Origin: Octopus vulgaris
Taxonomy: Eukaryota
Length of the DNA stretch: 64,000 bases
Direction of reading: 5' to 3'
Assembly (NCBI GenBank): GCA_951406725.2
Contig: OX597824.1
Coordinates: 89,342,001-89,406,000, forward strand
Shown here: in pieces, positions 3,232-56,125 of the stretch
Numbering within the stretch: the first letter of the stretch is position 1
Layout of the letters: each line of letters opens with the position of its first letter
Program-made: the position numbers and the translations under genes
The notes under the pieces: generated by a model
What the model was told of the DNA's origin: nothing
Database searches by the model: none
What the model saw: the letters and a program-made list of their open reading frames with translations, nothing else

Positions 3232-3764
3232 AACAAGCAAACACAGGCGCATGCGCATATAAGGATACACATCATGGAAGAACAAAATGGCATAAGCAGA
3301 TCGAGAACACACAGAGAAACGGAAAGTATCGCTGAGGAGGTCACAGGCGTGTAACAAAAGATTTCCGCTCAATCGACATTAGTTAGAATAAGAACGGTAA
3401 TAATCGAGTGAAGAACGAGTATACACTGCGTGTGTTTATTTGGCAAAAAAAAATAATTAAATGACCTTCCCAAAATACAACAATATTTGTTTCAACACAC
3501 GATTTCCCATCAGGAATCTTGCAACACAAATTCGTAAACGTGTAGAGGTTGTCAGCCGAAATAGCTTAGTTTTTTCTGATAATTCCTTTTTTTTTTCTTT
3601 TTCTTTCTTTTTACTATTTCCATTTAAAAAGACTTGTCAGTCCGCTTCAGTCTCCCTTCTAGAAATACCAGTCAAATCTACAACTGGCTCTTGTTGAGAT
3701 ATATACGACTATTTCTAGCGTCTCTATTTTCCACAGTCACAAATACGTGAACACAATGAACAAA

Positions 3765-3855
<91 letters not shown>

Positions 3856-3871
3856 TAATAATAATAATAAT

Positions 3872-4400
3872 GTTGTCTCCAAGTGCAGTTTTCTAGCGCC
3901 TACAGAGTATCTCAACAAGCATGACAGAACTGCACAATATATTCACTGGGTAATTTGCAAAAACCTGGATTTGCCACCCCATGAAAAAAACTGGTGGGAA
4001 CACAAACCACCTCCAGTGCTTGAAAATGACCACATCTCACTCCTCTGGAACTTCACCATTCAAACTGACAGAAAGATAGATGCAAATAGGCCAGACATCA
4101 TATTGAAAGACTTCAGACAAAGAACATGCCTCCTCATTGATATGACTGTCCCAATCGATATAAATGTAGCTGTCAAGACCTACCAAAAACTGAGCAAGTA
4201 TAAAGATCTTGAAATAGAAATTAGCAAAACGTGGAACTTGAAGACTAAAACAATACCTGTTGTCATAAATGCCCTGAGAATGATAGCAAAAGGGGCTGAT
4301 TGCTATCTAGCTCAGATACCAGGAAACCCCAAAATGGCAGAAATTCAAAAGATAGTGTTCGTGGGAACTGCTCATATCCTATGCAACATACTTTCTAAAT
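3872..4400 (+). mobile_element. R4/Dong-type non-LTR retrotransposon 3' fragment (restriction-like endonuclease domain)
   Basis: C..LA..EY..KHD, LLWNFTIQTDRKIDANRPDIIL...CLLIDMTVP...KLSKYKDL (RHD and PD..D..K RLE motifs); starts directly after (AAT)n 3765-3871. Confidence 0.88.
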
Positions 4401-4459
4401 TTTCACCATCTTTGAATGTGGGTGTGCGTGTGTGTATGTGTGTGTGTGTGTGTATGTGT

Positions 4460-4507
<48 letters not shown>

Positions 4508-4815
4508 GTGTGTGTATGAGTGGATAGAGAAGAGACGAAGATATGAGGTGGGAGAGAGAAAATGAAAGACGAAAAGAGATACACACATATATACACACAC
4601 ATGGCGCACATATATATATATATACACACACGTACATACATGCATACAAACATGCACACACACACTCATACCTTTTGAGCTCATGTTTATTCTAAATCTG
4701 TATATTTTATCGTTGTTGTTGTTGTTCTTTTGATGATTATGATGATGACAACGACGACGACGACGACGATGATGATGATGATGATGATGATGATGACGAC
4801 GACGACGACGACGAC

Positions 4816-4868
<53 letters not shown>

Positions 4869-5571
4869 CAACGTGGAGGAGGAGGAGGAGGAGGGTGAGG
4901 ATGAGGATGAAAAAGAATAGGCAAAAGAATAAAAGGAATCCTTTTTAGCTGCATTTTAGTGTCATCATCATCCTCATCGACCTCTTCCCCTCAACCTCTT
5001 CCCCTTCACCTCTTCCTCCTCCTCCTCCTCTTCTTCCTATTTATCACAAACCACTTGTTGAGGCCTCCATTGTTTCCAGAACCTACTTATCAGCCTCCCA
5101 TACACTGTTCCGTCCACCCCCGCCCATCTTCTCACCTAATCCCGCACCGTTTGCCTCTCTCTTCTGTCTCAACCGTTTCCCGTCCTTCAAACTCCAAAAT
5201 GACATCATGACTCACCAACCACAACTCGGCCACTCCACAACTTACTTCGCAACAAACAATCCCCACGGCTCCGGTCGCCGATGGTGTTGGGAGATTTTGC
5301 TGAAGGAGGTCACAGATAACATAATTCTGTAAAGGATGTGCTGAATTACAATGAGATCGACCGACCAACCGACAGACAGACAGACCGGTAATGCATATAC
5401 ATACATATATACAGTACATGCACACACACATACATACATACATATGTGTGTATATATACATACATATATACATACACACATACATACATACATGCATACA
5501 TACATACATACATACATACATACATACATACATACATACATACATACATACATACATACATACATAACTCT

Positions 5572-7532: not shown

Positions 7533-7606
<74 letters not shown>

Positions 7607-7918
7607 CAATAAATGGTGGGGTTGTGTTGACCGCACGTGGAGAAATGACAGGCCAGGAAAAATTATAAAAAGGCAGAATGTTAAATTGAAGGTAAATTTT
7701 AATAAAAGTGGGTGTATGGAAAATGTTAAAAAGTTTTGCAAAAATATTAACTCTAACCGGTTTTCATTGCAATGCAAATTTTCAAGAATTGAAAGGTGAA
7801 AAGAAAATTTAGTTTAAATTGAGGAGGAGGAAAAAGAAATTTACATTGTTTTTTGCAAAAAAATAATAATAAACATATACAAAAAGTAAAAAATAGGTAT
7901 ACCGATACATTGTAAAGT

Positions 7919-7959
<41 letters not shown>

Positions 7960-14139: not shown

Positions 14140-14586
14140 AAACTTAGATATCTTTCGACCAAAGATTGGTCCAGGCCATGTCTAACTTAATAGCACCACC
14201 TGATAGGATTATTTGAATCCTGTTTAAGTCCAGTTTTGTTTATGGTCCATTCAAGTAGTGAGTTTTTGTTGGGTGAGTTGTATCCAATTATGGGTGGCTT
14301 ATCTGGTATTCCTTGAAGGAATCTATCCAGACTCCGTTTAAAGTTGATGGGATCCTTTTCCTCTTTGATCTCTTTCGGGACAATGTTAAATAGAGCAGGG
14401 CCTGTTGAGGAAAAGAAATTATGTTGAAGTGTACATGTATGCTGTGATCCTGAATTGGGCAGGGGACGTATGGCCCGTGGTCCCAGTCTTGGATGAACCT
14501 TGAAGCTAATGTTCAGGTCGTTTGGGCAAAGTTGGCGGTATATTCTCCACATCGTACAAATGATGATGTACCGCTCACGGCGACGT
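14140..14586 (-). mobile_element. CR1-type LINE 3' end, 5'-truncated
   Basis: RRRERYII..MWRIY...HPRLG...GPALFNIVPKEI...FKRSLDRFL..IPDKP; a second copy of its 3' end lies at 34869-35022. Confidence 0.85.
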
Positions 14587-14646
14587 TGATGTACCGCTCA
14601 CGGCGACGCTGATGTACCGCTCACGGCGACGTTGATGTACCGCTCA
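14564..14646. repeat. 23-bp tandem repeat x3.6 at LINE 5' junction
   Basis: Unit TGATGTACCGCTCACGGCGACG(T/C) starting 14564, 14587, 14610, partial 14633. Confidence 0.95.
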
Positions 14647-18253: not shown

Positions 18254-18510
18254 CCACACACACACACACATACACACACATTAGATGGTGTACTCATGGC
18301 CACTGTCATCAGTTGGAATACTGACGCATGGAGAGGAATCTGTATGAGTGTGTATACATTGGGTGCGTTGCATATATGTGTGTATGTATGTATGTATGTA
18401 TGTATGTATGTATGTATGTATGTATGTATGTATGTATGTATGTATAAGAAAATGTAAACATATATTGAAGTAACACAAATACAGATACGAATATTTATCT
18501 TATAAATATA

Positions 18511-18542
<32 letters not shown>

Positions 18543-18545
<3 letters not shown>

Positions 18546-18762
18546 TTAAAAGCAACAGAAATTCAACAAAACCTGTTACTCGGAATTTACTCGGACAGTT
18601 TTGTTAAAATTTTAACAAAACTGTCCGACGAACGGGAACGTGAAACTCCGAGTAACAGGTTTTGTTGAATTTCTGCTGCTTTTAAATAAAGCATATTACT
18701 CTACCCCTGGTATTTGAGTACTCTTTTTCCACCTTGTTTCACATTTATGTGTTTACTCCGGT
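18543..18762 (+). mobile_element. Fold-back element, family P2, with hammerhead motif
   Basis: Loopless palindrome centred 18609/18610 (arms 18543-18609, 18610-18688); (TA)n on both sides; single-arm copy at 45098-45247. Confidence 0.8.
18621..18658 (+). ncRNA. Putative minimal type I hammerhead ribozyme (U4C core variant)
   Basis: ctgt-CCGACGA-ACG-GGAA-CGT-GAAA-CTC-C-GAG-TA-acag: stems I, II and III all pair; NUH triplet GUA. Confidence 0.7.
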
Positions 18763-19616: not shown

Positions 19617-20257
19617 GTTCTTCTTCTTCTTCTTCTTCTTCTTCTTCTTCTTCTTCTTCTTCTTCTTCTTCTTCTTCTTCTTCTTCTTCTTCTTCTTCTT
19701 CTTCTTCTTCTTCTTCTTCTTCTTCTTCTTCTTCTTCTTCTTCTTCTTCTTCTTCTTCTTCTTCTTCTTCTTCTTCTTCTTGCCTTTGCACAGCTTCTAA
19801 CGCTGGAGATGTATTACAGTGTTCACTACCACTGAACTAAGGTAACACCTCTTATTTTTCGAGTACCTTCTGGGAGTATTCGAGCGGTCCCAAGCAGTGC
19901 TGTTTTCTGCCAGTGCTCCACCCTTATTGCAGCCCCTATTTGTTCCACCTACTTCTCAAGATTTTTGCTCACTGTTTCCAGGGCTCCGACAGTTATTGGT
20001 ACTACTGCTACCTTTTTCATCGACCACAACTGCTTAACTTCCCAAGCTAACCTGTCGTATCTCTCGACTTTTCTTTCTTCCTTATCGCATACCTTGTTGT
20101 CAGCTGGACATGCTATGTCTATGATCCGGCATAGTTTGTTTTCTTTCACAATTAAGACTATGTCCGGCTTCCTATTCTCTTTCTCATGGTCGCACTGAAT
20201 CATAAAATCCCATAGGATCTTTGCATTTCTATTGTCGACGATGCTTTCAGGTTTGTG
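19617..20257 (-). mobile_element. R4/Dong-type retrotransposon 3' fragment (RLE domain) with (GAA)n tail
   Basis: HKPESIVDNRNAKILWDFMIQCD..ENRKPDIVL..CRIIDIACP..KVERYDRL..VVPITVGAL..QKTALLGTARIL; begins at (AAT)n, ends in (GAA)n 19617-19782. Confidence 0.88.
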
Positions 20258-20261
20258 GTTG

Positions 20262-20323
<62 letters not shown>

Positions 20324-20324
20324 G

Positions 20325-20832
20325 AGAGCAGTATATGCCAACAGTGACTCTGGAGTAAAATATACGAAACCCAGTATACCCATCATGACTACTCGTCTGA
20401 TAAGGGTACACAAGGTACATGCATCACAACCATATGTGCGAGACATGATAACCTCATATCAAGATAAACAGCTCATGACCTTGCAGGTGGGACCCAGTTA
20501 GAATTTTCTTCTGGTCGGGTAACCCATCCCACTCAAAAGGTCTCTGAATAAGAGTTTTTTGAAGGATGTTGAACGAAACACCTATGTTGCCAAAGGTGGA
20601 TTATCCAAAACTCAAAGAATTCCTCTCAACACATGGCTATGATGCTCCCTAAATACTTCTGATCGTGATCAGAGCTGCACATATCGTCAGCCACCAAGGG
20701 ACATACTCAGCTAGTTACGGTCAAACAGCTGACAAGCAAATCTGTGGTATTGAGCAGAATATTTGCTGTAGCCCATCTTTTATACTAAGACAAAACAATG
20801 TACATGATAACACTTCCAATCAGTTAAGATCA
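20325..20832 (-). mobile_element. Probable non-LTR retrotransposon 3' UTR bounded by (AAT)n on both sides
   Basis: No ORF; (TTA)n at about 20265-20323 and 20835-20914; second copy 1 kb away. Confidence 0.65.
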
Positions 20833-37652: not shown

Positions 37653-38020
37653 GCTCAATGTCAGCTCGGCTCAATGTCAACTCGGCTCAATGTCCGTTCG
37701 GTTCTATGTCTGCTCGGCTCAATGCCAGCTCGGCTCAATGTCTGCTCGGCTCAATGTCAGCTCGGCTCAATGTCCGTTCGGTTCTATCTCTGCTCGGCTC
37801 AATGCCAGCTCGGCCCAATGTCTGCTCGGCTCAATGTCAGCTCGGCTCAATGTCCGTTCGGTTCTATGTCTGCTCGGCTCAATGCCAGCTCGGCTCAATG
37901 TCTGCTCGGCTCAATGTCCGTTCGGTTCTATGTCTTCTCGGCTCAATGCCAGCTCGGCTCAATGTCTGCTCGGCTCAATGTCTGCTCAGCTCAATGTCTG
38001 CTCAGCTCAATGTCAGCTCG
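37653..38020. repeat. 16-bp minisatellite with 80-bp higher-order structure
   Basis: About 23 units of GCTCGGCTCAATGTC(A/C/T); variants GTTCGGTTCTATGTCT and GCTCGGCTCAATGCCA recur with 80-bp period. Confidence 0.95.
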
Positions 38021-38319
38021 CCTCAGGCTTATTTTTTTTAGTCATTGTATTAAAACTGACAGTCATTTATTACTGATGTTGTAAACAGAAAATTATCAAA
38101 CCTACTTATTTTCTTATTCAAAATATATGGTTAGTGGCCCCTTTACAATGTAATTATCATTCCATTTGAAATGCAGCTGTATTAAAGAAAAGCAACAATA
38201 TGAACTTGTTTACCCCCATATCGACCCTCAAACATCGCAATGAGATACCGTGGGGCGAATAAATGTGAAAAAATTCTGTACAAATGTGCGTATAAGAAAT
38301 GTGTGTGTGTATATGTATG

Positions 38320-45097: not shown

Positions 45098-45099
<2 letters not shown>

Positions 45100-45246
45100 G
45101 GAGTAAACACATAAATGTGAAAGAAGGTGGAAAAAAGTGTACTCAAATACCAGTGGTAGAGTAATATGCTTTATTTAAAGCAGCAGAAAATTCAACAAAA
45201 CCTGTTACTCTGAGTTTCACGTTACGGTTCGTCGGACAGTTTTTGC

Positions 45247-45247
<1 letters not shown>
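45098..45247 (-). mobile_element. Family P2 element, single arm, with hammerhead motif
   Basis: Reverse complement of 18615-18762; ctgt-CCGACGA-ACC-GTAA-CGT-GAAA-CTC-A-GAG-TA-acag; follows (TA)n. Confidence 0.8.
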
Positions 45248-55786: not shown

Positions 55787-56120
55787 TACGGAGATGTACT
55801 CGCATAGCAAGTAATTTGATCTGAGATCGTGTGCTGAAACGAAAACAATTGCAGCGTGGAAGGTGTTTATAAGCCATTTAAGAAACACACAAAAGCCGTT
55901 CGATTCACTTCAACATTTAAGTTTAATTTGTCAAAATATTTTCGTCGCTAAAATCCGCGACCTGTTCACTGACAAAGTCCGTGCTGCACGGACTTTGTCA
56001 GTGAACAGGTCTCGGATTTTAGTGATGAAAATATTTTGACAAATTAAACTTAAATGTTGAAGTGAATCGAACAGCTTTTGTGTGTTTCTTAAATGGCTTA
56101 TAAACACCTTCCACGCTGCA

Positions 56121-56125
<5 letters not shown>
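55787..56125. mobile_element. (TA)n-flanked fold-back element, family P4: 140-bp arms, 1-nt loop
   Basis: 55845-55984 is the reverse complement of 55986-56125 with 4 mismatches; left arm extends a further about 58 bp. Confidence 0.92.
55927..55976 (-). ncRNA. Putative minimal type I hammerhead ribozyme with G3:C8 compensatory core
   Basis: tttgtca-GTGAACA-G-GTCGC-GGATTTTA-GCGAC-GAAA-ATAT-TT-tgacaaa: 7-bp stem I, 5-bp stem II, palindromic stem III. Mirror copy at 55994-56043 (+) has a damaged stem II. Confidence 0.7.

Follow-up and report, generated by a model that had tools for sequence, protein, structure and literature searches.

A loopless fold-back at positions 18543-18762 of the window (i.e., the whole stretch of 64,000 nucleotides of Octopus vulgaris DNA that was analysed) is read here, with a probability of about 0.87, as dead and very short debris of a Penelope-like retrotransposon (PLE), consisting of two head-to-head copies of its pLTR; the features of the sequence make it quite likely that the parent element belonged to the Hydra clade. 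The initial annotation had left the element unnamed; it is the end of a PLE. The layout of the fold-back has already been described for these retrotransposons and only one letter of the hammerhead core is unusual; U4C is read as a derived core state on otherwise ordinary PLE pLTR debris.

Table 1. Positions of the elements discussed in the text, numbered from the first letter of the window
Feature	Position	Strand	Details
(TA)n target microsatellite	18501..18542	.	left flank
Left arm	18543..18609	-	67 nt; tail-less, inverted, 5'-truncated pLTR copy with broken hammerhead
Lesion of the left arm	18576..18595	-	18 nt replaced by 6 nt; 9-nt direct repeat 18576-18584 / 18587-18595
Perfect palindrome without loop	18591..18628	.	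19 bp on each side; centre at 18609|18610, where the two 5' ends meet head-to-head
Right arm	18610..18688	+	79 nt; pLTR copy starting 11 nt ahead of hammerhead stem I
Type I minimal hammerhead	18621..18658	+	stem I 18621-24/18655-58, CTGT/ACAG
Hammerhead core	18625-31	+	CCGACGA, U4C; stem II ACG/CGT in 18632-41
GAA box	18642-44	+	followed by palindromic stem III ACTC-C-GAGT, 18645-53
Predicted cleavage position N17	A18654	+	cut after A18654; GUA triplet 18652-18654
Unpaired tail	18689..18762	+	74 nt; right arm only, without mirror; then a short (TA)n run
Tail hairpin	18698..18722	+	RCTC...GAGY then ACT; also 3' of Hydra-type hammerheads in L001 and at published Hydra consensus ends
Second insertion	45098..45247	-	single-arm, tailed; hammerhead 45202-45239, core CCGACGA; 3' end 104 nt beyond stem I
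(TA)n-flanked segment	7604..7921	-	Hydra-style hammerhead-like motif at ~7750-7790; core UUGAAAA, U3-A8
Fold-back of an unrelated family	55787..56125	.	same layout; centre 55985; 59-nt tail on left arm; G3-C8 core
ORF scraps	2072-2461, 3719-4465, 14187-14597, 19949-20458

Layout and identity of the insertion

The boundaries and letters initially reported for the fold-back were confirmed: the structure has no loop, its arms measure 67 and 79 nt and the left one is shorter by 12 nt. The inverted repeat of 19 bp per side is perfect, with a spacer of 0 at 18609|18610, and both outer ends abut (TA)n. The tail-less arm has its 3' end 30 nt beyond the hammerhead position; in the right-arm pLTR the hammerhead lies near the 3' end, and the two ends lie 30 and 104 nt beyond stem I. 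The whole insertion amounts to two pLTR stubs only, i.e., 220 nt, and a target-site duplication is unreadable in (TA)n. A window-wide search for inverted repeats was dominated by microsatellites and a script limited to short loops was used instead; besides microsatellite-like matches, this script found only two fold-backs in the window (18609 and 55985).

In the literature, PLE inserts are described as comprising an inverted, 5'-truncated pLTR placed head-to-head, a palindrome at the junction, a one-ended tail and microhomology deletions (PMC3846280, PMC8557442), and minimal hammerheads sit in the pLTR (PMC4209133). The fold-back displays an inverted 5'-truncated copy, a head-to-head junction and a one-ended tail, the latter being longer than in print. 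Indeed, it shares with the Penelope inserts of Adineta vaga and Drosophila virilis (PMC3846280, PMC2377424) the head-to-head 5'-truncated pLTRs, the palindrome, the optional one-arm tail and the microhomology deletions, but differs from them in that its tail is 74 nt long, as opposed to the published ~30-40 nt, and in that the insertion is made of stubs only.

The assignment to Hydra is suggested by a number of more specific similarities. In File S2 of PMC8557442, Hydra-2_aMil has stem I ctgt/acag, stem III actc-g-gagt and A as N17, and Hydra-2_aJap has stem III actc-c-gagt, the same N17 and a stem II close to that of the window motif. The likeness of Hydra-2_Amil and Hydra-2_Ajap to the locus thus embraces the type of the hammerhead (I) and its location close to the 3' end, a stem III of the form actc-N-gagt (a 4-bp palindrome with a loop of 1-2 nt in File S2, as found here), N17 = A, the (TA)n target and the tail hairpin, the letters of stem I being shared with Hydra-2_Amil alone; the differences are the CCGACGA core of the window motif and the lack of any remaining ORF. 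The stems of Hydra-1_oBim differ, so that 18543-18762 does not belong to that family. Hydra families prefer (TA)n targets (PMC8557442) and (TA)n is present at both flanks of 18543-18762 and at the 3' flank of 45098-45247, a preference shared with non-Hydra elements too and hence not diagnostic of Hydra. By eye, the Hydra-2 consensus ends carry a hairpin like that at 18698-18722 at 39 and 34 nt beyond stem I, compared with 39 nt here. Hydra-1_Crog contains a similar hairpin, and the consensus of Hydra-1_Ajap opens with one; since the hairpin occurs both at consensus ends and at the Hydra-1_Ajap start, the tail is suggested to represent the beginning (5') of the tandem unit that follows.

A six-frame scan with short PLE protein motifs found neither a reverse transcriptase (RT) nor an endonuclease of this family in the window, and the clade call therefore rests on ~150 nt of non-coding sequence, the protein characters of the Hydra clade being RWK, DKT, a CxCX5C linker and the lack of CCHH. 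PLEs of the EN+ type have an ORF encoding a telomerase-like RT and a GIY-YIG endonuclease; the absence of such an ORF from 18543-18762 is as expected for a truncated copy.

Related loci in other contigs

In genome_contigs a near-exact pattern of the family had no match and a gapped pattern gave four matches in three loci (L001-L003) of contigs CBDDTI010000061.1 and CBDDTI010000225.1; this gapped pattern was built from the motif itself, so that the motif match of L001-L003 is by construction. By eye these loci are near-identical to Hydra-2_Amil, and the ORF piece that precedes the same stems in them is endonuclease-like: in L001 it is 49% identical (E 8e-42) to an adjoining ORF having a sub-cutoff GIY-YIG match (E 0.001), the piece beside the motif having no Pfam match of its own. 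The similarity of L001-L003 downstream of the motif is weak (71 out of 2000 shuffles were as high).

The boundaries of the copies in L001 recall those of the window. The tail-less copy, which carries the end of the ORF, stops in (TA)n 31 nt beyond the motif, and its tailed head-to-head partner begins 11 nt ahead of stem I, the window equivalents being 30 and 11 nt, respectively. Furthermore, three families have the start of the tail hairpin at a distance of 5, 6 and 9 nt, respectively, from the tail-less end; the pattern used for this hairpin was drawn up post hoc and is common genome-wide (2 seen and 2.46 expected per window), its position alone being rare (0 and 5 of 5000 shuffles). Its more general form RCTC...GAGY-RCW, located just beyond the tail-less end in several Hydra-type families, occurs also at 45138-45162, at L001 1309 and 3662 and at L003 1700, and may be an element at which the RT binds or starts.

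Amplification and long-read library preparation are known to generate loopless inversions artificially, and a fold-back chimera produced during library preparation or assembly could account for the palindrome. This explanation is hardly credible: a complex lesion and one substitution set the two arms apart, the outer ends both lie in a microsatellite and the boundaries match those in unrelated contigs.

An ORF of L003 with RVT_1 and GIY-YIG matches (3498-5207) belongs to a different PLE and was dropped as evidence concerning the window family. The head-to-head junction at L001 3568-3585 contains an 8-nt templated repeat, hinting at stuttering PLE junctions, and L001 1406-1567, beside (TA)n, holds a further fold-back, perfect over 76 bp around a loop of 10 nt, at the beginning of a different RT-like ORF piece. 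Both CBDDTI contigs stand in a bacterial assembly record and yet are rich in nested PLEs and microsatellites and animal-like, and are probably a contamination.

The hammerhead motif and its predicted fold

A complete minimal hammerhead had been claimed for the right arm and, at the level of the letters, the claim holds: the three-way junction has the type I order of stems I, II and III, with a stem II of 3 bp (2 bp in the 45098-45247 copy), and a GAAA box (GAA-A), an A15.1-U16.1 pair and a NUH triplet (GUA) are present. Stem I can be extended by ~10 further pairs beyond a bulged G. The consensus core CUGANGA is absent, being replaced by CCGACGA in both family copies.

Searched against Rfam, the whole window gave no match at the gathering threshold, and at E<=10 no hammerhead match was obtained for the motif; this test is a weak one, because a canonical motif of L001 used as control itself obtained only a weak hammerhead match (E 0.018, 19.5 bits vs a cut-off of 34). 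The E<=10 matches that were returned are hairpin-type noise (e.g., miRNA models), attributed to the long stem, and were discarded. On the other hand, a relaxed descriptor requiring a stem total of at least 9 and a paired stem III gave five matches in the window vs 0.05 per shuffled window (200 shuffles); three weaker matches (scores 6, 8 and 8) fell inside the null and were set aside. The descriptor allowing either C or U at position 4 matched only 18625(+) and 45235(-) in the window.

Long inverted repeats with TA flanks are typical of MITEs. A MITE or another fold-back DNA transposon, or else a chance AT-rich palindrome containing an accidental hammerhead-like string, would agree with the lack of an Rfam hammerhead match here; nevertheless, such an origin is extremely improbable and largely refuted, given that the outer ends are unequal, the second copy has a single arm, the descriptor matches are ~100x the shuffled rate and the same stems recur at the PLE 3' end in L001-L003.

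The hammerhead fold is poorly favored, contrary to the original statement that the right arm folds cleanly. In the minimum-energy structure of the arm the hammerhead does not form (z -1.18), stem III closes a loop of 1 nt, and the hammerhead fold, computed under the constraint that stems I and II pair while the core stays open, has a probability P of ~2e-3 for the arm alone as well as for the arm plus tail. Inside the whole fold-back transcript this value falls to ~7e-29, the full hairpin having an energy of -96 kcal/mol. Two copies can pair through stem III at -7.8 kcal/mol, and this pairing of two copies is the dimer mode described for PLE motifs (PMC4209133). Covariation computed over three sequences, in which stems I and III are invariant, was not significant (174 out of 500 shuffles were as high); with the motifs aligned in register, both partners of pairs 1 and 2 of stem II are changed in L001 relative to this family.

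Taken at face value, the fold predictions do not support the expectation that the U4C hammerhead is likely active at 18543-18762; most likely it is inert there, because the long hairpin is predicted to bury the motif. The motif resembles the dimer-type hammerheads of PLEs but lies outside the core consensus, with a probably weak activity, and in transcripts of the parent element it would most likely cleave weakly and only as a dimer or with the help of a protein.

The U4C core and its occurrence in a second insertion

The copy at 45098-45247 displays 138 identities with the first locus over 144 aligned columns plus 3 gaps, has an identical 3' end and contains a C-C mismatch as the third pair of stem II. 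BLAST similarity between the two loci ends at the element, the flanks having no shared sequence; because the similarity stops at the element edge, the two copies are separate insertions. Both of these separate family insertions in the window have U4C, and the view of the initial annotation that U4C is a family trait thus stands, with n=2 only; this being so, U4C was probably inherited from the source element.

Two copies sharing their 3' end, and nearly their 5' end, at a length of ~150 nt could also suggest a non-autonomous retrozyme, or a SINE-like or satellite unit, spreading by its own hammerhead via circular RNA, the fold-back being secondary; indeed, a preprint (10.64898/2026.07.22.740005) argues for an origin of animal retrozymes from PLE pLTRs. 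Published retrozymes, however, consist of repeats in tandem whose type I motifs are canonical (PMC7229834), whereas the window contains no head-to-tail tandem units each with a hammerhead, and the ends of the copies do not coincide with the cut site, contrary to what a unit-length cleaved RNA would leave. Spreading of this kind is accordingly held to be very improbable, and the two copies continue to be regarded here as PLE debris.

All 8 of the 8 motifs scoring at least 8 in L001-L003 have a CUGA core, four of them having been chosen by a pattern allowing C or U. In the published sets U4 occurs in 34/34 rows of File S2, the Hydra rows beginning with ctga being 26/26 (PMC8557442), and in 56/56 aligned examples of Figure S3 (PMC4209133), both counts deriving from searches that required U4. 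Because of this requirement, families having U4C would have escaped the published surveys. No PLE hammerhead with U4C was found in print, where published descriptors demand U4; the coverage of the literature was partial and a prior report is possible. Likewise, no study of octopus hammerheads was found in the literature searched.

As to the consequences of the change, CUGA-turn mutants were found to have low activity in a mutational scan, the 3-8 swap being excepted (PMC9901934), and a natural viroid U4C variant, far slower in vitro, still supports infection (PMC3088659). The viroid variant cited in the latter paper has the same core change as the octopus motif and is slow in vitro and adequate in vivo, but it is a single variant of an otherwise complete ribozyme, whereas here U4C is apparently retroelement-family-wide and accompanied by weak stems II and III. 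With the minimal PLE hammerheads of PMC4209133 the motif shares a short stem I core, a palindromic, dimer-ready stem III and dispersed copies, single or on opposite strands; it differs from them by U4C and by an A10.1-U11.1 pair in place of the usual G-C.

The lesion of the left arm

The initial annotation had described the core of the mirror copy as removed by a 12-nt deletion. Stem II and part of the core are in fact gone, but CCGA survives, and the change is not a single 12-nt deletion, since 18 nt have been swapped for 6 nt. In the left-arm motif C3-C4-G5-A6 are retained, whereas loss or alteration affects C7, G8 and A9 as well as stem II and the GAAA box; the 9-nt repeat within the lesion is flanked by two TCCGA microhomologies. 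The lesion can be read either as the sum of three changes (deletions of 11 nt and of 1 nt and a substitution) or as a single jump between microhomologies that left a templated repeat. A single event is favored over three mutations within 18 nt because the arms differ at only 1 of 61 positions outside the lesion, and the lesion is most likely the product of one error-prone event (a template jump or a TCCGA microhomology repair), rather than of a selected silencing of the ribozyme.

Palindromes may be prone to asymmetric central deletions, an idea for which no direct support was found in the passages compared of a review on palindrome instability (PMC7999016). The 9-nt repeat of the broken arm (18576-18595) restarts at most 1 nt from the predicted cut, a position that may be a coincidence or may mean that synthesis jumped to the end of an RNA template that had been cleaved.

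Arm asymmetry and the fold-back centred at 55985

The second fold-back of the window has its hammerhead-like motif at 55927-55976 (-) and the mirror motif (+) from ~55994, with a core GUGAACA, a stem I of 7 bp, a stem II of 5 bp and a palindromic stem III. The 3-8 swap that it carries has been reported as an engineered rescue (PMC11167929, PMC9901934), and no natural G3-C8 hammerhead was found in the literature compared. The two arms differ by four substitutions in 140 nt, all at CpG (P ~1e-4 if uniform), and three of the four are in stem II, where half of the 8 CpGs are located (P 0.24). Since all changes are at CpG and the share falling in the motif fits the CpG density, the damage at 55985 reads as decay and not as a targeted deletion. 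The asymmetry initially claimed to be the same in both palindromes is therefore the same insofar as the tail-less arm is the damaged one in each, but not in kind, the changes at 55985 being CpG point changes instead of a deletion.

When the suspected bias of the damage towards one arm was checked in the window and in L001, all 6 polarisable arm differences of the window were found on the tail-less arm (two-sided P 0.03 if independent, post hoc), as was, by eye, the sole arm difference of L001; this trend concerns the arm and not the ribozyme as such. Both hammerheads of the L001 head-to-head pair are intact.

It could be imagined that having one intact and one broken motif is functional, in the sense that a damaged mirror arm would be favored for releasing or sparing one ribozyme that works, as might be suggested by the tail-less arm being damaged in both window palindromes and by the distribution of the differences given above. 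This is very improbable, since the motif stays buried in the full hairpin (P 7e-29 here and 3e-43 for the hammerhead fold at 55985), the motif contains only 4 of the 6 differences, the L001 motifs have both survived, the 55985 changes are all at CpG with half of the 8 CpGs in stem II, and a noisier synthesis step or uneven decay would fit the bias equally well.

A stretch of 27 nt in the tail of the 55985 fold-back has a weak likeness to a small dispersed repeat present in two copies, at 690-780 (E 0.005) and at 3460-3540 (E 0.21).

A probable mechanism of insertion

The PLE insertion is likely to have proceeded as follows. The RT-endonuclease of the element would nick the (TA)n tract and copy an RNA not cut by its hammerhead, the template being considered uncleaved because the copies extend across the cut site. 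Copying would start at two set sites, +30 nt (tail-less arm) and +104 nt (tailed arm) beyond the hammerhead, and the conserved hairpin located between them may position the enzyme. Synthesis of both copies would stop ~11 nt short of stem I, and a loopless palindrome would arise from the joining of the 5' ends. For the joining we incline slightly towards priming at both nicks, which explains the two set outer ends, and regard snap-back of one cDNA, which explains the loopless centre, as a possibility just short of even odds; PMC3846280 favors snap-back on one cDNA for PLE inserts.

Biochemical data compatible with several of these steps come from a purified PLE protein which, in vitro, cuts AT-rich DNA on both strands, extends both strands and has two RT starts bounding the tail; in the same study uncleaved RNA is used and the protein is needed for hammerhead cleavage (PMC11167929). 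This element, Poseidon PAc of Anolis, resembles the present case in its two RT starts that define the tail, its AT-rich target and its use of uncleaved RNA; unlike it, it belongs to another PLE clade and has a hammerhead which overlaps the ORF start and possesses a canonical C3-G8 core.

A stop 4-11 nt before stem I is observed in four tailed copies (the 18543 locus, 45098, 55985 and L001 3575). On the other hand, the L001 family whose hammerhead lies at 1203 has a tail, is preceded by a long ORF and shows no stop near stem I, and the 7604-7921 segment, if a tailed copy, is also an exception; because of the former, and perhaps of the latter, the stop can be considered only a tendency. It may mark either a stall at the motif or the 5' end of the RNA, the second option being suggested by the finding that PLE transcription starts inside the pLTR (PMC2377424, PMC6765202).

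Core diversity in the window

A third motif, that of the 7604-7921 segment, has U-U at 10.1-11.1, and 0.005 such matches are expected per shuffled window. The 64 kb of the window thus contain three families with three different non-canonical cores (U4C, G3-C8 and U3-A8), the CUGANGA core being present in none of the five high-scoring motifs.

A more far-reaching interpretation, which we regard as speculative and rather unlikely, is that several PLE families left the canonical core independently and kept transposing, the fold serving as a protein-gated switch or as an RT-stop landmark; the short copies would be strong-stop-like cDNAs extending from the tail hairpin to just before stem I, and the 9-nt repeat the fossil of a jump onto a cleaved RNA end. 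If this were true, the repeat would constitute genomic evidence that a U4C hammerhead was cleaved in vivo. 

Irrespective of this interpretation, the spread of a family with U4C beside the compensated G3-C8 and U3-A8 families represents a natural experiment on the need for cleavage, and what PLE hammerheads do is the question that such non-canonical families could address. The recurrence of the arm boundaries, together with the tail hairpin, offers concrete positions at which the formation of the fold-back and of the tail could be probed.

The surroundings of these elements have ~38% GC and are packed with microsatellites, with a few LINE-like ORF scraps (Table 1) that resemble C-terminal pieces of LINE-type retrotransposons; Pfam searches with five ORF pieces of the window gave no match better than E 0.03. 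A 16-bp minisatellite having a higher-order period of 80 bp is located at 37653-38025.
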